Shown here piece after piece: positions 7,222 through 56,300 of a stretch of DNA of 64,000 nt; within the stretch, counting starts at the first letter, position 1, and every line of letters begins with the position of its first letter. Location: NCBI GenBank assembly GCA_045837725.1, contig JBEWZL010000260.1, forward strand, positions 124,001 through 188,000, read 5' to 3'. This DNA comes from Vermamoeba vermiformis (Eukaryota). The notes under the pieces are model-generated. The model did not search any database. It worked only from the letters and a program-made list of their open reading frames with translations, and was not told the DNA's origin. Made by a program: the position numbers and the translations under genes.

Positions 7222-8000
7222 TTATCGTACAAGAGTGCTTTGTATTTGGTCTTCTGCTATTTCTTTAAGCGCATCTCGGACTAAATGCAGTCGATTTTCT
7301 ATAGAGCATAATTAATATAAGAGATAAAATGCGATGAAATGCTCGTAGATAACGCACCAACAACTTTGATTTTCTGTTTTAACTGTTGCGCGAGTAAGTC
7401 GTTCTTTTGTTGCTCTTCATATAGCTTGTCATATTGTATCTGTTCAGTGTCTTCAATACCCGGCATAGACTCTACAATACAAGTGAGTTAGCACGAGTAA
7501 GATCTCAGATGCTTGCTGGATCTCATACCAATATATTGTTCTATTGCTTTACTTGTACTAACTATATTTGCTGCTAATTCTTTAAGTTGATCATCTGTTA
7601 GCTCGGGCGGTTTGATGTCTGAAGGGGAAGATCCAGGAGCGCCATCTCCTAAACCGTACGTCAAGTCAGATAAATTCGAAAAATGCGAAAATAAATGTCA
7701 TTCACCGGCTGCATATCAATTATGATATTGAAAGTAATTAATCAATTTTTCTCTTTGGCTAAAAAGACAAAATAGTTTTTGTCTTGCCTCTAGAGCACCA
7801 AGTGTCAAGTTAACGTTATTTCATATTGGTTACCATTACATTTATTTAATTTTATTCCTCCTACCTTTAGACTTCTTCTCAGGTTTGTTGATCAGTCCCA
7901 GGCTGGCTGCGGGCGCATCTCGCTGTATGGCACCAATACTCGTGTAAAATAATCTGCCCAAGTCATCTATACAAGATTGAAGTTCAGTCAGCCTGTCCAT
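7222..8000 (-). CDS. MED21: Mediator complex subunit 21 (Srb7)
   Basis: MDRLTELQSCIDDLGRLFYTSIGAIQRDAP, ELAANIVSTSKAIEQYIESMPG, coiled-coil end; 4 exons; absent from ORF track. Confidence 0.85.
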
Positions 8001-8706
8001 GTTGTTGTGATCGAGTCAGCAAATTGTTTGAAAGGAGAATCAATCCACAAACGGCCTGAAATCACCCCGCGGCAAGTCATCCAAAATTTCTGACTTTAAG
8101 CGACCTAAGGCCCAGACAAAGCCACAATCCACCTCAACAGTTTTCCTACAGGGCTTTTCTTTTGAGATCTGAAGTTAATCGAGTTTTGAAACTCCTGGAA
8201 TAAGCGTGATCGAGTTCCGCTTAAGGTTATAAACATTTGGGAGTTAAAATAAGGGTTGCAATCTCAAAACTGCGTTCTTCGACGGTGGAGTAATACACCT
8301 CCAAAATTGTTCCGCCTTTTTGTCGTGCTTCGAACCGGTTTCAATTTGCTTTCAAAAGGCAATATATAAAGCCACAATACAGCTTAAATAGTTTTTCGCT
8401 CGAAAGTAGCGAATTCAGCAACAAGACGCGTCGATCGTGATACTGCCAAAGTCAGAAACGACCGACCAGAGGTAAATTAATCATTTGTGTAATATATAGC
8501 ACGTTATTATAACTACAATACATAATTTATGGTTTGCTAATTTGGCTGAATTTTGTGTGCACAATAACAAAAGTTTTATTCCGTTTCAAATATTGATCTT
8601 GCTCACCATGGGTTTCTAGGAGGAAAATAGAACGTGAAGATAATATATCAACTCAACTATACACATATAAGAGGATTATTATATTTTTGGAACAGTTTCC
8701 TAAGAG

Positions 8707-12771: not shown

Positions 12772-14526
12772 ATGGAAAAAAATTCAAAAGAAGATAAGAA
12801 AGACAAGAAAAAAGACAAAGCTGATAAGGTAATTATAACAGAAGCGTCGGATTAATTGGAATTTATTTGAAAATATTATTTTTACTTGAGCTAATTTCTT
12901 TGATATTACTAGACACTCGTGGTACACTCAGACGCACATATTCAAAAGGCCTTAGTCGACAAAATACCGTTCAAGTTGAGTCCGTCGATAAAATCAGTTC
13001 GATGGCCTGTTCTGTACGACCAGCATCCAAACCCAGCTTTGCTTTTTAAAGCCTTAAAAGACAATTCTACAGTCACATCACTATCATTGAATAGAAATCT
13101 AATGTCTTGGAACAAAGCAGCAATGGATGCGTTCGAAAAGAGTTTGATCGCCAATACAAGCATTCACACGCTTGAATTCAGTTATTTTTCATTCGATCAA
13201 ACAAATGCAAAGTTTGTTAGGACATTAGCGAATATATTAACAAGCAATCATCGGATCCAGCACATAAGATTTTACAGCATTGACGATAGAATGAATTATA
13301 ACGTATTTGACCCGTTCTGTCAAAATATTCATTTATTTGGCTTAAAATCACTCGAAATCAAAGATTTATGTCACATGCACGTCATTGCCTTGTGTGGATC
13401 CGTTGCAAAAAGTCCAACAATTACCTCGTTAGCAGTTGATTTCACGCACCAATCACCGCAAGTATTCAGTAGTATGGTCGATGCAATAATAGAGAACCCA
13501 AATATTACAGATCTGACAGTCGGCAGTTCACAAGGCGAGATCGCGGGAGATCGATGGATCAAATTCAAATCAGCCTTAGAACGAGATACTTTAAGGCGAT
13601 TAATAATCCAAAACTTGAATTTAAAGGACAATGCAGCAGTGCAAGAAAATTTTGATAACGTTATTTCCGTGCTTCAAAGATCCAAAAATCTCGAAGAATT
13701 TGGAATCGTTTTTGGCGGGAATATCAAATGGAAGTTTATGGGCGATATATTATCTAATAATAAGAACATTAAGAAGCTGGTATTAGATAATTCTTACTTC
13801 CTTCCAGAAGACTTTGCGGATCTAAAACTGGATCAAAACGATACTTTGACAGAACTTTCGTTTAATAATTGTTACCTAGCTGGCAATTATCTATCGGAAA
13901 TATTATGCCATAATACAACGATAAAGAAGCTGAAATTTGGAACACGACATTTAACGCAGAACGAGATCAGTGGATTATTACGAGCATTGAAAAAGAATTG
14001 GACATTAACGGATTTGCAAGTCTTAGCGGACTTTTCAGAGACACCACTTGCTGATTTATTTGCAGAAGTATTATCGGTTAATAGAGGCCTGAGAAAATTA
14101 ACTTTCCACATCCAAAACTGCGAGTACGAACACGCTTGCCGAGTCATAGACGCATTGAAAATTAATACGACATTAAGAGAACTAAACTTTAAAAAAGATG
14201 GACTGATGTATATCGGAAGTCAAAATAAGCCACCAGGAGCACCAACCTTTGATCTGTTGTTAGCGGATCTGCTTTACGTCAACGAAAGTCTTACGTACAT
14301 TCAAGGCTCAGAACCATTCCCAGAAATTGAAGCAGCATTAACGCGAAACAAAGAAAATCAACGGCAATTAATAACAAACGGAAAGTTGTTCGTCAAGATG
14401 TTGGCCATGAGGCCTCGGACTTACGGTGGAATTCTTCCGCCTGAAGTATGGTGCTCGATATTGCGTCACGTGACTCTCCCTGGTGTAGACTGGGATGCGG
14501 AACACTTTTACCGCCAGAACTTGTAA
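12772..14526 (+). CDS. RNI-like leucine-rich repeat protein with C-terminal F-box-like motif
   Basis: Repeated ALKxNxTL/IxxL units; short Lys-rich first exon; LPPEVWCSILRHV near the C-terminus. Confidence 0.75.
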
Positions 14527-14564
14527 CGTTGTAAGAAAAGTCGAATTCGATTTCTGTACTGCAA

Positions 14565-16023
14565 ATGTTCTCAAAAAAAGCGCCGGCGCTTTTCCTCAAA
14601 GTTGAAAAAAAAAGTTTTGTTATACCCTAATTACACAACCACCCCTGCAACACAAGAGCGCAAGGCTTACAGCTTACCAAAGTAATTGATCTGTATTACG
14701 GATCTACTCGTACTAATTCAATATTCTTTAGCCAACCCTATCGGCAACTCAAATCTCAAAGCGAATCGATACCCATGGCGCAAGTTTGGAAACAAATGGC
14801 TAAGGTTGCTTTTTGGAAAGAAGTAAAAGGTCAAACTGTTCTCGACACTAATGGTGAATCGTAAGTTGCAGATTTAGTGCTCGTATTTTCAATTCTAAAA
14901 TCGTAATTTACGTAGGATCGAAGAAATATTTGCCCGTAACAAAATAGTTCCAAATTTTATGGAATTTAACGATTTTTTTACTTGGGCGATTAAGGTACGT
15001 CTAAAACATATCATCTGCAAATCTAATTTATTTAAAGTCCGAAAAGGAAAGGAGACCTCATTTCAATCCCATACCCGGTGTCGAATTTTTGGACACGATC
15101 ACAGAGGTATGGCTAATCTAAATTTACGCCGTTCGTCTCTAACAATTTTAGAAACTTAACGCGGTAGATAAGACTTCTGCAAATATAAACCAGGCATACG
15201 ACAACGAACAAGCGATACAAGATAAAATAATCAACAAACAGCGTGAAGTCTTAGCTTCGGAGTTTTTGAAACTGGTAATCAGTTAATTTTATTTCAAGTG
15301 GATGAAATTACGATCTAATACTTCATAGGATGAACGCATAATTGAATATATGTTCCCAAGATTTGCAGCATTTAAGGTACAAGACATCTTCATGCAGCTG
15401 CAAGATAAAAAAAGAGAGAAATGGGGCGAGAGAACTTACGACAATACACTGTACTGGGGCAATATTTCAACGCTATTTTAAGGATGACTTCAATCATTTG
15501 GCGTATGTTTTACAACCTTGATCAATATTGTCTTCTCGTCTAACTATTTCTTATTAGCGATCAAAAAGTCAATAAGTACTTGCCATATTGTGTAAAGAGT
15601 GATATCAAACCTGATTTGATGCTGATTTCACGCGCAAAAGATGTTCCGTTCGTAATTTGCGAGTACAGTGAGAGCAACTCTGCAAGCAACTGCAAAGATT
15701 TGATTAAACTCGTCGAAACAATGCAAATGGTGCTAACAAAGCGTATCAAATCCTTTCATGAATGCTCAAAAGCCATCTATGGCATACTCTGTGGCGGTGA
15801 CAAGCTGACACTATTGTGCATGCAGTATAATTACGAAGGATATTATGACTGCTTCTTCATCGCTGCCAACAAAAGAGAATTACAAACACTTCAGTTAGAC
15901 TTTGAAAATTTTGCCACCATTCTTAAGATGAACATAATTCTGAAGCTTAACGGACTTAACCAGTTTCAATTTGCTCCAAAGCCATCCAAATTATCAGATT
16001 GCAAAGATGTTTTGCTAGCATAG
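14565..16023 (+). CDS. Multi-exon protein with C-terminal PD-(D/E)xK-like nuclease domain (Crinkler REase-like); start uncertain
   Basis: Spliced WGERTY..YWAIF, IKPDLMLI, PFVICEYSES, IYGILCGG; needs 1-bp corrections near 14575 and 15457 (first downstream in-frame ATG about 14776). Confidence 0.55.
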
Positions 16024-16074
16024 CACTGCCAGAACTTGTAATATCTTGCTGTTTAATGAACACATCCAGAAGTT

Positions 16075-18910
16075 TTAGTTTTTTTCAGTGTGTGTCTTCT
16101 TAGGCTTGGCAGGGTTGATGTCTTTCTTGGCTTTTCGTTTCTTTGAGCCTTTTGCAGCAATTGGTATTGGTTTGTTTTCATCTGCCAACATGTCTGAATT
16201 TGCATTTGTATCTGTGATTTTAGAGAGGTACGACAGGAGGAACAACATGCTCAACCAATTGCTACCATTGGACTCAACAAAGTTTTGCTGATCAGTGACA
16301 TCTTGCTTTGTGCTTTCTCAGTAAGGAGGATTTTGAGGGTTTAGGATCCACCAACACAAAAATGTGTCCTTGATCCAAGAGTGGTGTCATGTGCCTTACA
16401 TCCTCACATTTGGCTTGCACACTTTTACATTGAATCAACAAGAAACGAATGAAGTCTGACTCTTGCTGGTGAAGTGCTTGGATTGGTGCCTGTCACACAA
16501 TTAGTGTTGCTACATAAGCTCTGAAATTGACTGGGTACTTTACCTCATTTTTTTCAACCTTGTTTGCAAGCGTTTGAAGTTTGTTCAGATCATCATTTTC
16601 CAGCATCAAGACAGGCACCAAAACATCAGCAAAGTTTAAATTAGCTTTGTTAATGATGATGGCTTGGGACTCTTTGAGACTAGGAAGTAGGGCTGCAAAT
16701 GTTCTGCTTTCAGCTTGCTTTGATTTTGTGACTTTGTCAATTACTTCACTTATTTGGCATTTTGCTTTGAAAACTCCTGTTAATCGAACCTGAATGCTCA
16801 CATTAGTTTATGTGCCAATATATTCATCCACAACTTACATAATGATTGCTGTACTTCCAATCTGCAACTAAACTTTGCATCTTAACATAGGTGTACTGAT
16901 TTTTGGCCTGAAGCTGGTATCGTGCCCAGAGTGATGTTGCACAAGCTACTTCAAGCCTAGAACCCTCTGTGCTTGTTTCTGAGCCATCACCTCCAACAAT
17001 ATCTGCTAGGATTGGAGAATAGGAGTCAAACAACTCAGAGGGCTTGTCTCCCTTCCATAATTCTGCTGAGATGTTCTAGTCATTGTTAGCAATCTAGCAC
17101 ACTAAGTCTACTTAACTCACCATTATTTCAGAGCCATAAAAGTGAAATGGCAGTGTGTAGCTACGACTTGCACATTGACCTTTAACTGGACCAAACTGAA
17201 TAGGCAGAATAATTCCCTTGCCCTCTAGCTCAGCATAAGTTGTTGCGCCTCTAATTCAGATTATTAAAATTAGAAGCTGCTGTAATTGGAATGGTACCTG
17301 ACTATGCCATTTTGAGGGTTGGTTAGGCAGAGGCTTAACTCCAACAAGACTTGCTTATCAAATTGACCAGCCAATCCTCTTTGAATAAAATAACTGGTGG
17401 CATTTCTGGTGAAAGTGTCAAATAATTGCTTCTGTTCTGCTGTAGTTATTGTCTCCCTGGCCAAGATGCCTTCAAATGATTGCAGAGCATCATGTAGAAT
17501 TTGTACTGCACGTGGAATTCCAAGACATCTCCTCCATAGAATATCAACTAGTCTTGAACCAGCAGCTGAGACATTCTTGCAAACTTTTTGATAGTATTCT
17601 TCTGATGACAGTGGATTCAGTGGCAGAATGACATCAGTCAGTATTCTAGTTGGGTCTTGAAGTTTACTCAAATCAGCTCCATAAAGTCCAACCTTTGCAC
17701 CGTGAGAATGAAACCACTAAGATAAGCCAACTTACCATCAGTACATGCACCTTAAACACTTTAGATTCCTGTGCAAATTCGTAGAACTGAATTAGTACGT
17801 GATACGCAACTGCTTTTTGCAAAGCTTCCTGAGCAAGAATTCCCTGGTAAAAAATGTTTAGTTAATATACCGATAGGGCTTCATTCAGGCAAACTTACTT
17901 GTGCTTCATCGATGTTGACCAATATAAGTGTTCCTGGAAGAGGCTGGCCAATTGGTGTGTAACCCTCTTTTTCAACGAGATGGATAAACAGTCGCATTAG
18001 GGAGAAGAATACGGTGTACTTTGGCTGCTCTGCTGCTTTTAGAAGTCCTGCACTTTCAAGCCACGTCTTGTCTTCATTACATTCAACATTCCACACATTT
18101 GGTATCATCATTTCTTTGGAACCAACAGTCCGTCCGTGAAATCGTCTGCAAATATTCCGGCTGACGATTGATCGGCAAATTAGGTCCGTTGCTTTAGCGA
18201 CGTCTTCCGCACTGTTTGGATCGCGTAACTGAAAATCAAGCTTGAGACCAGAGATCGAGAGGACAACAGACTGCTGCAATGTTCGATGAAGATTGACCAA
18301 GAACCTGATTCGCTTCGTCCTCTCAGACCTGTCTTGAAGCGTCTCAGAACCGCTTTCTATCTCGTTAAGTATCGTCTTCAGCTCTTTGGTGTTCTCTAAA
18401 GGCAACGACTTGTTCTCGATAAAGGCTTGCAGGACCTCAGCGTTGTGAAAGACGCGGATCGCCCACTCCAACAACAGACGTGTCTTTCCGTAGCCAGGAG
18501 CAGTTGTCAGGACGGCTGCTTTTGGCTTGGTACTTCCGATACGCGTAAAATTTGCGAAGCAGTCGTTCAGCAGAGACAGCAGCGCGAGTTGACGATTAAA
18601 GAACGGTGGTTGAGCCAAATTTCTCCAGGGCACTGGATCGTCGACGCCACTGGGTAGCGGGAAGGTGAATCTCTCGTCCTCGGGATGGGGAACGAGGTAG
18701 TCTGCGTTATAAGCCAGCAGCTCGTTGCAATGATTTATCACTTTTTTGATCCCGCGAGTTGAAAGCTTTTGCAGCTGGGTATAAATTTTGAATATTACTC
18801 TCTTTTCCTCTTTTGTAAATAGTTAGTATTAACATTATTGCGCGTAAGTCTCGAAGCAAGACTGAATATAGAAACTCACCACCATCTTCTAAAGCTTCTT
18901 GCTTCTCCAT
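16075..18910 (-). CDS. P-loop NTPase fused to C-terminal PD-(D/E)xK nuclease (Crinkler/RHS-type)
   Basis: FFNR, Walker A APGYGKT, Walker B LVNIDEAQ, GIPRA motif, then FADV...LLIQCK, basic tail KKRKAKK; 3' end needs one indel near 16295. Confidence 0.7.
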
Positions 18911-19419
18911 TCGAGACTCTATAATCGAGGAAATATTATCAATTAATTATTCTTAGCAATTAAACGCCTGCAGAGTTTTGTCTGATTTTTTAAAGCAAAA
19001 TCGAATTTGGATTTGAGCCAAAACTCCGTCAAAGAGTAATCTAATCCTTCTTGGCACAGATAAACAATTATATTAAAATTTAAAAATCAGGAGAAGTAAA
19101 ATAAGGAGCAATTTTCCATTTAGTAACGCGCATCTAAAATCTCCTTCAGCGACACGAGTCTGCAGAACTTACATTATTGATTTAGTTACTTTGTTGTCGT
19201 TTAACATTGACATAATCAACATTGTGGACTACAACTGGTCAAAACCAAAAAGTCTGCCATTTGCAGCTGAACTGGTTATCTTGCTAGAATAATTTTACAG
19301 TATCGCGTAGCAGGAAGATAAATACGGTTTTATTATGTACATTCCGGTTACTAGCATTGGATTACTATATTACATATTTAACAGGTTTAGTGATTATGTT
19401 CGTATGGGTTGATAAGCTA

Positions 19420-22400
19420 TTAGACGTTGATATCAAACTCGGGCAGTTCCGGGATCCCGCTCGACGACTCATCACTTGAACTGAATGAAGGCCTACTATT
19501 ATCAAAATTGGCAAAGTTCTTGCTGATATCGTTTTCTCTTCGTTCGAAGCTCGAGTTAGCGACAGAGTCGTTCTTCTTGTAATTCTTTCGTTTCTTCTTA
19601 TACGCCCTCTCGCTGTCTTTAGATCTCGACTTCAAGCTCGGATCCGTTCGAGGCCTCTTACTCGGCACTTTCTCTTTATCTTTCGACTCTCGTTCAGAAA
19701 ACCTCTTCTTGTCTCTCTCTTTCGCGCCACTACTTCGCAAAGGCGCCGTTCGATCGCTCAAGGCCGGCTCATTGTTGTTATTGTTCGTGCTCTCAACGAT
19801 TACTGTCGCGGGCTTCGGGCTCGGCATGCGATTCTTCTCGCCTGATTTATTCCGTCCTTCTTTGTCTTCACTTTTTCGCGCTGACGGCATCAGGCTCTCT
19901 TTGTCGCGTGAACTAGGTTGACTGCCATTGCCATTTGTTCCGACTCGTTTCAACTCTGGCAACTCAATCTCGTTCTTGTCCACACCAGCGTTGTGATTGT
20001 TATTTTCATCGGTGTTCAGCGTGTTTGAACTTGACACGGGCAACAACAATCCTCCGTTAGCGTTCTTCAATTGATTCAGTTCTTTGGTCAGTTCGCTGTT
20101 TTGGCCCTTCAAGACTTCATTCTGCTTCGTCAATTCTTTCACGCGGCCCATCAACTTTTCAATCTCCGATTTGATGTTAATAAACTCGTCGTCCATCGAT
20201 GACACCGTAGAATTGTAGTAGCCGCTGCGACCAGCGGAATATTGTGAGTACATGCTCGAATCATTCGTGCCACGCGACATGGCATCGCCGGGTTGGTGAC
20301 CCTTCTCGCTATTAATCGGTGATAATTTTCCGCTGCCGAAGCCAGTTCTGACGTAATGAAATTTGTTCACGAACAGCGTTATCACCGTGATGAGATTGCC
20401 AATAATAATTCCGAATGCGTGAATGGCAAACATTGCATGGGGCTCAACCGCGTCTGAAAACTCCAACGCGACGACAGCTAAATTATAAGTATATATTAGT
20501 ACATAAACGCGGGTATATGTGTTAGATTTACTATTCGAAGAAATCAAACACAGATTTACTTTCACAAGAATCGACCCAAAAAAAATTTGTGTAATAAAAT
20601 CAGTTTTTGTGCATCAAAAAGTACTTCTTAATTTATCGAGTATTCAATACTACCACTATATTAAAGTATGCGTATAATATGACTTACCAACACCACAAAA
20701 GGCGATGCAATAGATGATGAAGGCCAATAACTTGGACTCGTTGTAGACCTTGTTCGGAATAACTCGGATGCGCACCGTCAAATAAATTCCAACGGCAACT
20801 ACGGCACCATTGTACACCACAGATATAATCACAAAGATGGTGCGCACATTCGATGTCGAGCATTCCATTTGCCACGTGGAAGGTTTGTACGGGTTCTCTG
20901 GCTCCAACATCGGGTCATTGCCGAGAGCTGCAATTACAACCGCGATGGCGATTTCAATGGCGACCAGCACAGCAGTAATAATCGTCAGTCTCGCGTCGGT
21001 GATGTTGTTAATAGTCAACGACTTGTTGTTGTAAAGCGACCAGATCCGCCACACTTTTGCGAACAACGAGCCAAATGTCATGATGAAACCGATGCCCAAG
21101 AGCAATGGATTTAACGTGCACGTGGCCACTGAGACATTGCTCGGCGAATCAACAAAGATACTGCTGTACGAGATCAATGTGCCCACGAGAATGTAGCACA
21201 AGAACAACGAGCTCGAGTGCGAGATGACTGGATTGCGACGATAGGCCAAGACACAAATCAGCAGTGCTACTGATAGTGCCATAGAGACTAAGCGAAAATA
21301 ATATTATTAGGATTGCTATTAATAGAATGACCGTTGAAGAATCAATACCGCATAGTATCATTTAAAATAAACGCAGTCTATTTAGATTTAATAGATTGGC
21401 CATTAAAGAATCAAAAATTAATACGTGATCGGTTACTATTTTTAGGGTTTTTATCGAGAAAATTTGTTCGATAAATTTCCTCAATGAAACGATTGCCAAA
21501 AATTGGTATTATTTAATCAAGCTCACAAGTCTAATATTGGTGTGGCCGATAAACGTAATCTATTAATATAAAGTTCATATATAAATAGCACTTACGAATT
21601 GTCACAGCAAAAACGCCCCAATCGACGGCAGTATATTGAGGATTGAAAAATCTCTCGTGCCACTGTAGATGATTAATGTTAATTATGATTACGATAAATA
21701 TGATATTATAGCGCCGTGTATATCAATAAATTTTATAATACGAATTAATAAGGCGTCATACCTGCGGAATCGGATAAATCATATCGACTTGTTGGATCCG
21801 ACTTGGTGCGAGAACCATAAGCGTATTATTCGATGAGCTATTCGTCAACACATCGCTGGCAGTGATTGTAGGTTGATATTGCAAAAATGGCACGGGTCTA
21901 AGCTGCGTGTGGTCAGATCCGAATTGGTACGGGCCTAGATGATAGATCTCGCATTAGTAATGCTCGAGATGAGTTATAAATATTATTAGTGTGCTTATAT
22001 AATAATAAAATGTCTTAAGTGTCGCTTCGGATATTGATTAACGGATAGCCGGAAAGCATCCGTCTCGGAGGTTGCGTTAATTAATGCCACATCCACACAT
22101 TTAATATAACATACGGAACATAAATCGCACCGAATATAAAAATAAACAATATTAATTAATTCAAGCACATAGCCGCCTCAATTTAAAGATTTACATTTCG
22201 AGAACTTCTAAAATTGGCAATTTGCGCATCTCGATAGTGAGGCGCTTAAAATTAATGCCAAGATAAGCGGCTACGCATTATGCGATGCACTCGGGTAATA
22301 TGAATAAAATAACGTATTTTCTGGCAAAGCAAGTAAAGATCTAATTTGTTGAACGTACCGAAAAAAGTTTCGACTTGATTACGGCCCAATGCTTGCGCTA

Positions 22401-23430
22401 CTTCATCATCCTGCAATGTACCAGCAGTCTCTATAGCAACTGTTAATAAGAGACCTGCAACAGTCGCGTAGGCGTTCGTTGGCACTGCTTCTTTAAGGAA
22501 CAGAGTTCTGTATCTGGATTTGAATCTCGAGTAACTTCCAAAGTAGACGTCTTTGTAGTCTATGCCAGGACCAGCTACATCATGACCAGCGAGGTAAGCC
22601 ACTAAATTGGGATCTGCATCCCCGTACAAGTTATCGCCGATGAGATCGACCACAACCGCACTCGGCAAATAGTCCAAATCTTTCATTACTTGCAACATGT
22701 ATCGTACGTTGGCCGAGAAAGTGCACATCATCAGCACATCCGCTTCGAGCTTCTTAACTTGCAGGATTGTGTCATACAAATTTTGCTTTTGTTCATCCGT
22801 TGGTTCCACGTCGGCAGCTGTTATTGATAATGTCTTGACTATGTCCAAGCTGTAGTCTGGCGCATTTTGAGCGACACCAGCGCAAATTGAGCTGTGCAAC
22901 ACTGAATCCTCGGTTACTAATGTGATCGTCTGCGCTCCTTTAAGTCTCAACGTCGGAAGGGACTGCAAAGCAAATCGCGATGCTGAAGGGTATACTGAGA
23001 ACGCCTTATTCGAGTCCTGAAAGAACGAATCCGCTGCCACTAAAATACCGATCAATAGCCGATTTGCTGCTTCAGTGACATTCCTTGCTTCTAATGCCAA
23101 CTCGGTGGTGACTGGGGCCAATAAATAATCCACAGATCTATCATTGACTAACTGTTCATAATTCAGACGCACTTGGTCAACATTTCCGAAATCCTCCAAA
23201 ATTTTTAATTGGAACTGAATGGTTGCATTATTTAGCTGTAATTTATATTCGTCGTTTGCCCATTGTTGCCATACTAATAATCCATTCATTGTATCTTGGC
23301 TGAACTGTTGTTTCATAGGCGAGGAGCTCTGAAAAGACAGACTGATCCCTACTGTTACATTCAGGATGGAGCTCCCAGCCGAAATATTTACAAATAAATA
23401 TAATATTAGTGTTACAAATAGCACGGGCAT
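19420..23430 (-). CDS. Family-3 (GABA-B/Grl-like) GPCR with N-terminal periplasmic-binding-protein domain
   Basis: Signal peptide, ANF/LIV-like ectodomain (YLLAPVTT, VETFFG), 7TM motifs PVISHSSSLF, GSLFAKVWRI, YNESKLL, coiled-coil and charged tail. Confidence 0.9.
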
Positions 23431-24002
23431 ATTACGGGCTATTCGCATGCTTCTTAAAAGTTCGTTATCGCTTCTCTAGTTGTTGCATGTTTGTTGTTTC
23501 TTGGGCGACTAAATTTACAAAATTGAAAAACCAACTTATGACGGCTGCTAAATATAGCGCGACCAAAAGAATACCTTATATACGTTGCACTATGCTTGTT
23601 TGGACCTAACCTAGGTCATTACGCTAACAAAAAATGTTGTGTGGGAATTTGATCTAAATTTAGCATTTTTTCTGGCGCCGGTGATTAACCGCCGATCCAA
23701 CGGACATTGCATTGAGGGCACTAACTGTTCACTGCAAGAATACAGCAGAATCATGGCATCGGAAGCCTCCTGAAAAGTCGAATAACGATTCACAAAAGAT
23801 ATTCTTAGCTTGCGCCCTTCGGATGCCTAATAGCACTGAAATTACACCTTAATGCTTATTTTATCGATTTTGACTGATCTAAAAGATTTGGTATGGCACG
23901 GAATCCCAAATTAGCCCTCTTCCGCGAGAAACAGATTTTTGAGGCAAGATCTCAGGCCTTTGTCTCATTTAATCGTGCAAGGCTACAACAAACGGATTAA
24001 TT

Positions 24003-37352: not shown

Positions 37353-39070
37353 ATGGTACAATATCTTTAAAAAAAATCCAATTATTTATTTTGAATATTT
37401 AGGAGGCATTACCACGAGAAATAGTCGAGCTTATTGTGTCATCAATGGATGCGAAAACAAAAAAATATTTTCGGCAGACCTGCACCAGATTATTTGATAT
37501 TGTTGACCTTAGAAATTTTACGTTCTATTTCACGAGATCAGCAATGCTACCGGAGATCGTTCAGACATTATCACGATATTCCAAGCCGATCAGCCTCACT
37601 TTCACAAAGACCATCAATCTCAAACCTCAAGCTATTAATTACCTATCAACATTGACTAATATCACGAGCTTGGAGATCGCTGGAAGATACGACAAAGATG
37701 TTGAGAAGATGTCAAATCTGACCCAGCTGACGAATCTGCGCTTCTTGCAGTTTATGGAATACTTTCATTACGCAGCTATGTTGACGACACTAAAACAGCT
37801 AGATAGAGTAAATCTACGTCGCTTCTTATCGTTAGCTGAAACGAAAATGGTCTTGAAGGCAAACTCCAACTTGCGACATCTAGATCTGTGGACTCTTGAC
37901 AATTTCGAACACATTCAAAATATCGATCGTGTGACGCATATTTATATATCTAATTTCCGTGGCGATAATTACGAATCTATGAAAGCTCTAGAACAAGCTC
38001 GTCAGTTGCAACACTTGGATGTGTTCTCCAACCATCCCACTTATATGCCGCTTAGCGCGCTAACAGCACTCAAATCGCTCAAGTTAATAACTAAATCAAC
38101 TGAAGTAATCGAATCTGCTACTGGTTTGGCATGCTTGAATCTTGAACAGCTAACTATTGGCGGACAACTGGCAGCGGATGTGACCAAAACTTGGACAGCC
38201 TTGACAAGCTTAAAAGAATTAACACTACATCCTGAAGGCGAAAGTAATGAAGAATTATTACAGTTTCTAACAGCACTATCAAACCTATCATCCTTTGCAC
38301 TTAACAATGTTGACGAATTTTCGTCTTTCAATTGCTTGGACTTTTTGCCTGACACTTTGACATGTTTGGACATGGAAGTTACAGATGCTAGCAAGATCAA
38401 TAATATCGCTCGTTTGACGAGATTACAAATCTTAAGGATATTAGATTATCGGCCTGGTCCATGGGACTATTATTTTCTGACAGCATTGACACATCTGACT
38501 CAACTAACAATTGACTCAAATGAAGCACGTGACAGTTTGACATGCATCGGAGATTTAACGAGCTTGAAGAGTATCATAATATATTCGTATGACCAGGTGT
38601 TGAATTCTGGTTACTTCAATTTTTCAAAACTGGTCAATTTGGAAAAGTTGGATCTGCCTTCCGTTCTAATGACCGCTGATACTTTAACTACAGTATCATT
38701 GCTATCAAATCTGACGGATCTAGCAGCTGTTTACGACATTCATGATGTGCCTCGTGTTCTTGAAAAACTGCCATTGAAAAACTTAGAGTTGGTGCACGAA
38801 CAAAACGAAGAATTTTGGCAAAGTTTAGTTCAAATAACAACTCTCGAATCATTGAAGATACGTCATATCCATTCAGAAGACATAATATTGTCATTTTCGG
38901 GTCTTCAAAATTTGACACAACTTGAAGTCGTTACTAGTGCACCATTCAACTACACGTGTCTCATTCACCTCACGTCACTTCAATATCTCAAATTTCCTGC
39001 TCTTCGGGGTATTAGTAGTGAAGCCCTGATGGATCTAATGCCGTACTTGTATTACGCCAACTTGAATTGA
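37353..39070 (+). CDS. F-box/leucine-rich repeat protein
   Basis: ATG, intron, then EALPREIVELIVSSMD..FRQTCTRL (F-box) and many LTxLxxL repeats. Confidence 0.8.
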
Positions 39071-53346: not shown

Positions 53347-56300
53347 ATGGCTACAGGTACTGATCGGTTTGCCGATTATCCATTACATGCTGCCGCATTT
53401 CGCGGTGATATAGAGAGTATCAAAAAGCTAGTCGATGGCGGTTATGCTGTAGATACGCCAGATTCTGAAGAAACAACTGCTCTGTATTAGTAAGCACACG
53501 TGACATATTATGTATAATACCATGGTGGATTAATCATGCTTAATCTAGCGCTTCATTTACCGGTGAAAAGGAAGTAGTCGAGTATTTGCTGTTTAAAAAA
53601 GCAGATCCGAACAAGGCCAACAAATTTGGTGCTACCCCATTATCGGTAACTTTTTAAAATATTTTCTAGTCGTGCTATTCAATTACAAAAATAAAATATA
53701 AATAAATGTCAAAGGATGTCAAACGAGGCTGAAATTAGAAACGTTTGTTCGTGTTAGCTTACGTTCCTTTGTCCGATAGGTCGCTGCCGCACATGGTTTT
53801 GTGTCGGTGGTCAGCGCTTTATTGGATGCCAAGGCACAAGTGGATGCGCTCGATAATGAAGGAGCCAGCGCGGCTCATAAAGCAGCCTTCTACGGCAAGT
53901 CTAAGACCTTGTACTTGTTGTACACTCATAGTGCCAACGTCAAGGGTCGAGATCTCTATGGCACTACTCCCTTGCACAATGCCGCGTTTAGTGGCTCTTA
54001 CGAGTGCTGCTCGATCCTCATCCAAGGGTACGGTGCTTGGTTTATCGTGAGTCGATTATTAACTTGTATAATAGTGGCGCGTTGATCAACGTACGCGACT
54101 GCGAAGGCACTACTCCGTTCATGAAAGCTGGTAAGTCAGATTTTTCAGTCACTTTTCGTTCTAACCCTTAGTGTAGCATTCAATGGCCATTTGCCCATTG
54201 TCGCTCTCTTCAGCAGAAAGTAGGTGTAAGAGCATATATCGAACATGCACTAACGTTTCCACAGTGGTGCCAAGTTGAATATGCGCGACAGTTTCAACAA
54301 AGTGGCGGCCATTCACTTCGCCTCGTTCAAAGGTCACAACAGCATTGTTGACTTTTTGTTGAAGAAAGGTGCTCGTGCCACCATTGCAGACAAGCGAGGT
54401 ACTACTGCTCTTCACTATGCCGCCTACAGTGGTCACTTAGACGTTGTCAAAACGTTGCTCCAATACGGTGCGGATCCGTTGAGCCGGTAAGTTGCACGTG
54501 CCCTGTTCTTGCGTAGCTAATAGGAGCTCAGTGACACTGGTGGCCAATCATTGCCCGAGTTCGATGAGTCTGCGTACCACTCCAGCATTCACGTGTCAAA
54601 CGGCACTGATGCAGTGGGCTGGACACCAATCCACGGTGCTTGCTACAAAGGTCACCTTGAAGTCGTGCAACATTTGTTGTCTCTTCCTGGTATTGCAGTG
54701 GATCTCATTGGTCCTGCTAAGATCACTTTGCTCCATGCCGGTACGTTACACACGAAATATAATGAGATGTCAATAGCTAATTCCTGTTGTAGCCGCTGCT
54801 AACAGTTGCCTCAATGTTGTCAAATTTTTGGTCGAGAAAGGTGCCTCCGTCAATGCTTTGGATAACAGTACGTTTGAACTAGAAGTTATAGGAGTAATGC
54901 TAACATCGTGCAGATGGTGCTAGTGTCCTCCACAAGGCCGCTGCTTGCGGTGAGCGTGGCTTTGAAACTGCCCAGTTCTTGCTCGAGAAGGGCGCGGACC
55001 ACTCTGTCGTCGATCGTTTTGGCATCTCCCCGTTCCTCGTTGCTTGTTATTCTGGCTGCAGTTCTCTCGTGAAGCACTACTTGGACCAAGATTGGGTTAA
55101 AGTCGATGACGTCGATGCAACCAAGCAAACTGGCTTGCACATGGCTGCTCGTAACTCACACGAAGACGTCATCAATATTCTTTTGGAACACGAGGCGAAG
55201 AAGACTGTTACCGACAAAGAGGGCGCTACTCCTTTGCATCGTGCCGCTGCGGCTCATTCCGCTGGCGGTTTGAGAATCCTCTTGCAACAAGGTCTTGACA
55301 TTGAAGCACGTGACAATCTCGGTGAACAAGCCATTCACAAAGCTGCTGCCGCTGGTCAGATTGAGGCCGTCGACGAACTGTTGAAAGCTGGTGCTTCCAT
55401 CGCTGCAACGTAAGTCCCAAAACTATGCTCAAAGCACACGTGTACCTAACATTAGTACGTTGCAGCGACTCTCAAGGCTTCACTCCATTGCTCCACGCGT
55501 TTGCTCAAGGTCGTTTGGAATGCGCTAAACACTTGCTAGCCAAGGGCGCTGATCTGAATGCCAGGGACAAGGACGGCGCTACTACTCTTCACGTGGCTGC
55601 TCAAGGTGGTCACGTCGACTGCTTGCGCCACCTTGTTACGCTTGGTATTCCTATTGCTATCAAAGACACTAAGGGCTCAACGGGTAAGTGCATTTTGGTC
55701 TCAAAGTCTTTAGCCTTGAGCTGTGCTAATTGTTTACAGCTTTGCACATCGCTTCATTCAATGGCCACTCTCAAGCAGTCTCTTTGTTGTTACGCCGCAA
55801 CGCACCTGTTGATGCTCTTGACGAAGAAGGGTAAGTATTGAATATAAGGCGTTTGATAATATGATGCTAACTGGTTTTAGTTCAACTCCCTTGCACAAGG
55901 CTGCCTTTACTGGCCGAGAAATGGCCATGCGCTACTTGATCAAGAAGGGCGCTAAGGTCGATGCGAAGGACAACGAAGGCGCTACTCCATTGCACAAAGC
56001 TGCATTTAGTGGCGAAGTCAAGGCTGTCACTTTGGTATGTTCAGATCCACCTGCTCATTCGTGACTTGACCATTCACTAACACGCACTGCAGTTGATCAG
56101 CAAGGGCGCTACTGTCAATGAAAAGGACAAGCAGGGTTCTACTCCGTTGCACAATGCTGCTTTCAGAGGCAACGTTGACGTCGTCACGGCTCTTGTTGAG
56201 CGAAGTGCTGTCGTCGACACAGCTGATGTGAATGGCTTGCGGTACGTCTATTGCGTTCTTATGGTTTGGGCCTAACAATGCGAACTAGACCGATCCATCA

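Follow-up and report, generated by a model that had tools for sequence, protein, structure and literature searches.

Why should one short part of a single gene have lost nearly all of its CG dinucleotides (CpG) when the DNA around it has kept them? This question is raised by a 64-kb stretch of eukaryotic DNA (hereafter, the window), which is gene-dense with short introns and contains an eight-exon gene on the minus strand (gene A), a convergent neighbour on the plus strand (gene B) and a CpG-depleted tract that runs through much of gene A into the last exon of gene B. With expected dinucleotide counts taken from base composition, we counted 9 CG in 15955-17700 against 69.7 expected, an observed/expected ratio (o/e) of 0.13; the whole window contains 3110 against 2663 expected (o/e 1.17). 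An initial annotation of this DNA had put the count in 16021-17700 at about 9 CG against roughly 60 expected, and the exact figures agree with it (9 against 67.6, o/e 0.13). It had also described the 5′ part of the gene as CG-rich, the remainder of the window as undepleted and TG and CA as abundant in the tract. All of this held: 18100-18750 contains 47 CG (o/e 1.18), and TG and CA have o/e values of 1.46 and 1.50 in the tract compared with 1.06 and 1.06 window-wide. The lowest CpG o/e among 1137 control windows (1746 bp, step 50, outside 15000-18700) is 0.86, far above that of the tract.

At the CpG rate of the window, 83 CG would be predicted for 15955-17700, and the Poisson probability of finding 9 or fewer is 4e-25. 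No 500-bp window outside the tract has a CpG o/e below 0.67, six of the seven longest CG-free gaps of the 64 kb sit end to end in the tract, and all eight NCG and CGN trinucleotides occur there at 0-0.17 of their window frequency. A two-rate change-point fit within 14000-19500 gave maximum-likelihood limits of 15863-17774 for the tract (unstranded; core, 15955-17700), with 11 CG per 393 C inside these limits and 165 CG per 717 C outside. On the right, the boundary is reached within about 100-200 bp, a sharp edge at intron 3/exon 3 of gene A; the left edge is softer and fades over about 200 bp (15750-15950). The CpG-depleted patch is thus a real feature of this DNA. Milder dips occur at 7501-8250, at 38001-38500 within a leucine-rich-repeat (LRR) gene and at 54251-54750 within an ankyrin-repeat region; with o/e values of 0.67-0.82 in 500-bp windows, these are far weaker than the tract.

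Separate sequencing runs contain the same tract. Across 14800-19300, each of 30 bins was covered to a similar depth by contigs from DNA run X1, which differed from the tract at 0-2 positions per 229-393 nt; because they reproduce it, the depletion is not an error of one assembly. A contig from run X5, which carries a different organism label from X1 and which we guess to be RNA, skips 17691-17733, corresponding to intron 3 (CT..AC, cut +2), and so joins exon 3, the last CpG-normal exon, to exon 4, the first depleted one. If X5 is RNA, gene A is apparently transcribed and spliced. Additionally, a water-metagenome run (X6) contains a relative, 90-95% identical, that covers the tract and its flanks on both sides. 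An assembly chimera, a contaminant or a base-calling error at modified CpGs could account for the sharpness of the edge, but for nothing else; with three runs spanning the region, a reading frame and intron signals that continue over the edge, and arginine codons that are spared within the tract, we find an artefact scarcely credible.

The edge divides gene A. Exon 1 (18910-18880), exon 2 (18809-17899) and exon 3 (17843-17736, with CG at 17780, 17798 and 17805) are CpG-normal, and the right edge of the tract lies at intron 3 (17735-17693, 43 nt, GT..AG). Exon 4 (17692-17298), exon 5 (17250-17121), exon 6 (17075-16839), exon 7 (16789-16544) and exon 8 (16489-16292) are all depleted. Beyond these exons and the introns between them, the tract spans the 3′ end of gene A, a short spacer and the final ~160 bp of the last exon of gene B (15544-16023, plus strand). 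Within the coding sequence the change is concentrated where a CpG can be lost silently. Codon-boundary pairs C|G and T|G stand at 30 to 28 in exons 1-3 and at 1 to 52 in exons 4-8, and NCG and NCA codons at 14 to 25 and 1 to 46, respectively. By contrast, GC content at codon positions 1 and 2 is 0.45 in the 5′ half and 0.44 in the 3′ half, and GC content at third positions (GC3) that are unable to form CpG is 129/253 (0.51) and 137/301 (0.455). Overall GC3 drops from 0.49 to 0.35, and this drop is largely at CpG-prone silent sites.

What was lost as CpG appears to have been regained as TpG and CpA. The tract contains 166 TG against 114 expected and 143 CA against 95 expected, a combined surplus of about 87 to set against a CpG shortfall of about 74 at the window's rate, and the control dinucleotide GpC is unaltered (o/e 1.32 in the tract, 1.25 in the window). 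The same depletion is found outside coding sequence. The four introns in the tract (195 nt) contain no CG, whereas the two 5′ introns (125 nt) contain 4; the spacer at 16024-16074 contains none, and 16075-16291 contains 2 against 8.4 expected. Since introns and spacer are depleted, the process acts on DNA and not only on coding sequence. These observations bear on the idea of selection against CpG in RNA or DNA, for example by a CpG-reading nuclease or sensor, or of a repair or mutation bias unrelated to methylation. The extreme depletion at silent coding sites would fit this idea, as would the possibility that gene A is nuclease-like (a weak match, given below). However, introns and spacer are depleted equally, the depletion extends into gene B and stops in the middle of the gene A messenger RNA, and the loss is balanced specifically by TpG and CpA, which makes such an explanation very improbable.

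The CpGs that survive are not a random sample. Seven remain in exons 4-8, comprising five at positions 1-2 of arginine CGN codons, one NCG and one C|G; the corresponding classes in exons 1-3 number 13, 14 and 30 (Fisher P = 0.016). Arginine makes up 4.5% of residues in the 3′ half and 5.7% in the 5′ half, and CGN accounts for 5/18 and 13/20 of the arginine codons, respectively. The tract maintains 401 codons without a stop, and CGA, which deamination would convert to TGA, accounts for five of the 350 codons in the 5′ half. The encoded protein has also kept its resemblance to distant relatives: compared with one metagenome family locus (L004), gene A is 41%, 42% and 26% identical and P0028, a 1026-residue family protein, 39%, 46% and 23%, so that the tract-coded part is as similar to distant family members as P0028 is to the same loci. 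With arginine codons spared, the frame open and identity to distant members kept, the pattern is most readily read as gradual CpG loss under purifying selection and not as one unselective burst.

We consider it somewhat better than an even bet (roughly 55%) that the tract is a long-standing island of CpG methylated as 5-methylcytosine (5mC), decayed by deamination under purifying selection. A sharply bounded methylation island would have been inherited over a long time through a germ line or clonal lineage, covering two-thirds of gene A on its 3′ side, with intron 3 as one limit and the last exon of gene B, slightly beyond the 3′ end of gene A, as the other, and the promoter-proximal ~1.2 kb of gene A would have remained unmethylated. 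Deamination of 5mC to T would have converted nearly all selectively free CpGs to TpG or CpA, and purifying selection would have retained some CpGs whose loss alters an arginine. The footprint, with exons 1-3 normal and exons 4-8 depleted, resembles intragenic methylation that spares the 5′ end. Had the 3′ half started out like the 5′ half, some 4-6% of its silent CpGs would now survive, corresponding to about three CpG transitions per site. The initial annotation had likewise proposed 5mC deamination: the signature it implies is present in the reciprocal TpG and CpA gain, the introns and the silent sites, and is confined to one patch. We infer 5mC as the cause, the great age of the island and the correspondence of its limits with the transcript.

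One candidate for what would target such an island is double-stranded RNA from overlapping convergent transcripts; another is recognition of a repeat-like gene family. About 50 bp separate the stop of gene B (16023) from the stop of a conserved C-terminal tail of gene A (~16075). With convergent stop codons this close, the transcripts of the two genes must overlap, the 3′ untranslated region of each running into the last exon of the other. The tail itself (16075-16290, minus strand) matches residues 879-918 of P0028, but the allele in the window does not carry it in frame. This is owing to 13 nt at 16317-16331 that are present in the window and missing from the X1 contig: when they are included, exon 8 is read for 65 codons before a stop at 16292, and without them the frame continues for 133 codons to ~16075, through the family-conserved tail. 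The window may therefore hold a truncated allele, or an assembly indel at 16317-16331.

A different route to the same base changes would be mutation resembling repeat-induced point mutation (RIP), in which a once-duplicated segment of ~15.86-17.77 kb was recognised as a duplicate during sexual reproduction and an enzyme mutated its CpGs, in a single cycle or in several, the partner copy being later lost or diverged. Such a segmental duplicate would have limits like those seen here, which cut gene A sharply and take in part of an unrelated neighbour; the decay is nearly complete, as RIP-like mutation could make it; and CpG-biased RIP-like mutation that reaches genes has been described in Basidiomycota (PMC4014442). 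However, the remainder of the window contains neither a second copy of gene A nor a repeat of the tract, and we found no terminal or inverted repeats bounding the tract, only short two-copy matches. Each X1 contig has a single place of fit, and depth stays even over the tract and its flanks, although this is a weak measure of copy number. A single unselected burst would not spare arginine CGN codons and leave 401 codons without a stop. Nor is TpA in excess (o/e 0.59 in the tract, 0.78 in the window), which sets the tract apart from canonical RIP of the CpA type. We consider RIP-like mutation unlikely.

Under the methylation-decay reading, the age of the depletion can be gauged from sequence variants. 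At about half depth, X1 contains a second haplotype at 15757-15828, 17282-17333 and 18080-18267, with 6-11 differences per 50-80 bp; these look like very divergent alleles or two strains. At 18145-18267, the X6 relative carries the letters of this second haplotype. Of the 40 variants listed (a further 178 exist), none of the 10 in the tract core involves a CpG in either allele, whereas 8/19 in the right flank (18080-18267) do. The X6 relative differs from the window at 16/191 and 24/354 positions in the tract and at 17/279, 10/206 and 11/225 in the right flank, and thus lacks the extra divergence of ~4% expected in the tract had this relative kept its CpGs. Because no core variant touches a CpG and the tract shows no extra divergence, the depletion seems, on this slender evidence, older than both the haplotype split and the X6 split.

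The second haplotype also raises the question of whether the 3′ part of gene A was replaced by recombination, either through conversion from a CpG-poor paralogue or through introgression from, or allelic recombination with, a methylated lineage. In its favour, the right edge lies where an intron meets an exon, X1 holds two haplotypes with patches ~10% apart, and a truncated relative of the 5′ part exists (P0005, 78% identical). We nevertheless regard replacement as improbable. The tract reaches the spacer and gene B, non-family DNA that is missing next to the family copies we fetched; the halves resemble each other in composition at non-CpG silent sites; relatives rank alike for exon 2 (P0002, 52%; P0004, 43%) and exon 4 (P0038, from the same contig, 42%; P0028, 36%); the second haplotype adds no tract CpG at the 10 variants shown; and methylation-driven decay would still be required in the donor. 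A chimeric origin of the 3′ part, which had been offered at the outset as an alternative to methylation, fares no better. Introns are 43-54 bp in the tract and 55-70 bp outside it, and both groups are of the GT..AG type, non-CpG GC3 is similar, P0028 can be aligned with the 5′ and the 3′ half alike and a spliced read spans the edge. As the halves share a homologue, an intron type, non-CpG composition and splicing, a chimeric 3′ origin is not supported.

The relative P0005 (159 residues) is 78% identical to gene A residues 28-115 and diverges directly after the motif GYGKT; its differences from gene A include R to W. P0005 may represent a close paralogue that has been truncated or frameshifted.

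The second candidate for targeting, recognition of a repeat-like family, is close to the marking of a foreign or repeated element that the initial annotation had proposed, and gene A may qualify, since its family is multi-copy in another organism. Several family copies in one metagenome (L001, L002 and L004-L007) are 90-94% identical over ~3.2 kb with unrelated flanks, L003 and L009 are copies at 83-86% identity, and L004 and L005 are 99.9% identical. This ~3.2-kb unit, roughly the gene itself, behaves like a dispersed repeat in these sequences; no transposase was seen inside it. About 2 kb downstream of one family copy, a retrotransposon integrase remnant lies at 5090-5761 of L006 (rve, E 2e-14; Integrase_H2C2). 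Next to the fetched copies no homologue of gene B adjoins, and the initial annotation's description of the two genes as a pair does not stand, gene B not being a conserved partner. The family copies have only a mildly low CpG o/e (0.67-0.88), with flanks at 1.0-1.47 in four loci and 0.53 in L007. A CpG-to-TpG/CpA bias among paralogues had been proposed as a check on methylation, and in these distant copies it is weak: CpG transitions are 1.0-1.8 times those of other C/G sites. Given this rate and the mildly low o/e, the family is not generally marked, and we dropped the whole gene A family as the methylation target.

Several observations weigh against a decayed methylation island. The family copies just described (L001, L004, L006, L007, L003 and L009) show little of the CpG-specific transition expected of a marked sequence. 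Only 1 of about two dozen genes in the window has the pattern; the kinase, ALG6/8, G-protein-coupled receptor (GPCR) and ankyrin genes are undepleted. With a single gene affected, this is not ordinary gene-body methylation of the animal or plant type. The apparent transcription and splicing of gene A would fit poorly with simple silencing methylation, and the Fisher test that separates the surviving CpG classes is based on 7 sites. A more specific reading, which we hold to be doubtful, is that gene A is an expressed, selectively maintained single-copy gene with a stable, sharp 5mCpG island on its 3′ two-thirds, in a genome with no other CpG depletion. This would be gene-body-type methylation delimited by the transcript, in a lineage thought to lack it, possibly nucleated by convergent transcripts and kept for approximately the time of a species-level divergence. 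It assumes an early-diverging-fungus-like eukaryote, a placement taken from Mucoromycota look-alikes of the two gene families.

That low CpG o/e can result from the decay of germ-line-methylated DNA is an established principle (PMC13297926). The tract resembles mosaic methylomes, as described, in its CpG deficit, its reciprocal TpG and CpA excess, the restriction of the deficit to what would be the marked sequence and the sparing of the 5′ end. Unlike those methylomes, it is one patch per 64 kb, covering part of one gene in a window with an o/e of 1.17, and at 0.13 it is deeper than the roughly five-fold depletion given for human DNA (PMC13297926). Closer in shape are the sharply bounded repressive 5mC islands described on lineage-specific genes of sparsely methylated protists (PMC11244446, PMC12344493). 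These organisms include Amoebidium, Acanthamoeba, Cyanophora and Naegleria, and the islands lie on young, transposon-like or virus-derived genes (PMC12344493, PMC11244446). The likeness extends to sharp limits, to the marking of lineage-specific genes and, in the accounts cited, to genomes otherwise without transcription-linked gene-body methylation. The islands in those accounts are mostly silent, intron-poor and viral, whereas gene A is intron-rich, apparently spliced and probably under purifying selection, and no viral relative of it was found among 23 and 58 pattern matches in two scans of viral contigs. The tract thus differs from known islands in occupying part of an intron-rich, apparently expressed and selectively maintained gene in a window that is otherwise undepleted. 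Amoebidium is described as widely methylating the CGC/GCG context; in the window outside the tract this context is undepleted, and we set aside the Amoebidium-like methylome that a 90% match in EukProt had led us to consider.

Fungal systems provide three further comparisons. In Rhizoctonia solani AG8, CpG-to-TpG changes of the RIP-like kind reach protein-coding genes (PMC4014442). As described, that process is genome-wide and graded by distance from repeats; here we found a single bounded patch with no repeat nearby and with arginine codons spared. At Neurospora loci of dicer-independent small interfering RNA (disiRNA), convergent transcription induces methylation of gene-rich, non-repeat DNA (PMC3764098). 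The convergent genes, overlapping transcripts and stops ~50 bp apart at the present locus are alike, although the overlap established here is tens of bases and not 1.9 kb. Methylation in Neurospora is not known to be restricted to CpG. In Cryptococcus, DNMT5 performs maintenance-only CpG methylation that has persisted for millions of years (PMC13297926), which would provide a route for long inheritance of a sharply bounded CpG-methylated patch; the Cryptococcus patches described are centromeric or transposon-rich, whereas the patch here lies within gene A and the end of gene B. Gene-body methylation is described as largely lost in fungi (PMC13297926). A methylated patch here would run counter to that loss if the DNA comes from an early-diverging fungus.

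If it is methylated today, the tract would offer a clear natural example of an epigenetic mark that is both highly local and very old and that sits within a functioning gene, and the limits of the island could be set against transcript ends, antisense RNA and chromatin marks. A decayed island would also reveal the extent to which mutation driven by methylation can alter codon usage in a gene whose protein is maintained by selection. If the tract is not methylated, it would point to a repeat-triggered CpG mutator in a group in which none has been shown. Checks of local CpG o/e, TpG and CpA gain and arginine codons provide a cheap marker, computed from sequence alone, for similar islands elsewhere in this genome.

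We also examined what genes A and B encode. Exons 1 and 2 of gene A contain a Walker-A-like GYGKT and a Walker-B-like LVNIDE motif, and G110, G112, K113, T114, D305 and E306 are invariant in nine sequences. Pfam matches to the 5′ half were sub-threshold (AAA_25, E 0.007; nSTAND_NTPase5, E 0.1). In exon 6, Pfam gave EC042_2821, a restriction-endonuclease-like family, at E 0.038, below the curated cut-off, which makes exons 6-8 a candidate restriction-endonuclease-like part. Gene A is therefore without a named family and possibly combines a Walker-A/B-like half with a nuclease-like half. For gene B, we found a PDDEXK_12 cluster at a score of 0.77, with ESM look-alikes only. The term nuclease that had been applied to both genes is not established by these results, the nuclease identity coming from the one Pfam match at E 0.038. 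Look-alikes of both genes in the atlas are clusters of hypothetical proteins, commonest in Mucoromycota, which we take as no more than a hint at the type of organism.

Structural comparison gave a similar picture. A model of exon 2 had a predicted local distance difference test score (pLDDT) of 77; Foldseek returned nothing for it at E <= 0.001, and VIA-align placed BrxC best (Z 5.1), followed by RdrA, Apaf-1, CED-4 and Cdc6/Orc1, all under the trust level. The model of P0029 alone (pLDDT 42.5) was too poor for a structure search. Pfam found no family in P0028 or P0029, PADLOC matched 0/7 pieces, and a PDB sequence search with P0028 gave chance-level rows only.

With exon 2 as query, HMMER retrieved 23 relatives from 1.84 billion representatives. 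P0028, from the cluster of one of these, reads like a spliced transcript, and its alignment with gene A takes in exons 2 and 4, exons 5-6, exons 7-8 and the tail. Five metagenome loci share the gene A layout with both halves, and relatives have an upstream SAM-like exon that was not found in the window. In word-indexed protein searches, exon 4 yielded 2 relatives among 17 candidates and exon 2 none among 3672. A metagenome scan with exon 4 yielded no relative among 146 pattern matches, and a second scan (alignment A1) yielded 11 loci, 10 of them at 30-36% identity and one a short match at 53%. Among 50 prokaryotic pattern matches there was no relative of gene A.

Across the window we found no tRNA, and Rfam gave no match in 14500-19500 at E <= 0.1 or in the whole window at the gathering score. 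The introns of gene A as modelled are 43-70 nt, all GT..AG. Other genes of the window include those for a class C GPCR, a bZIP protein, a PKD protein, an AGC kinase, ALG6/8, and BTB-BACK and ankyrin proteins. The class C GPCR gene lies at 20656-23448 on the minus strand and encodes 7tm_3 together with a domain resembling periplasmic binding proteins. A transcript-derived protein in EukProt matches its ligand-binding exon at 90% identity, so that a close relative is known only from a transcriptome.

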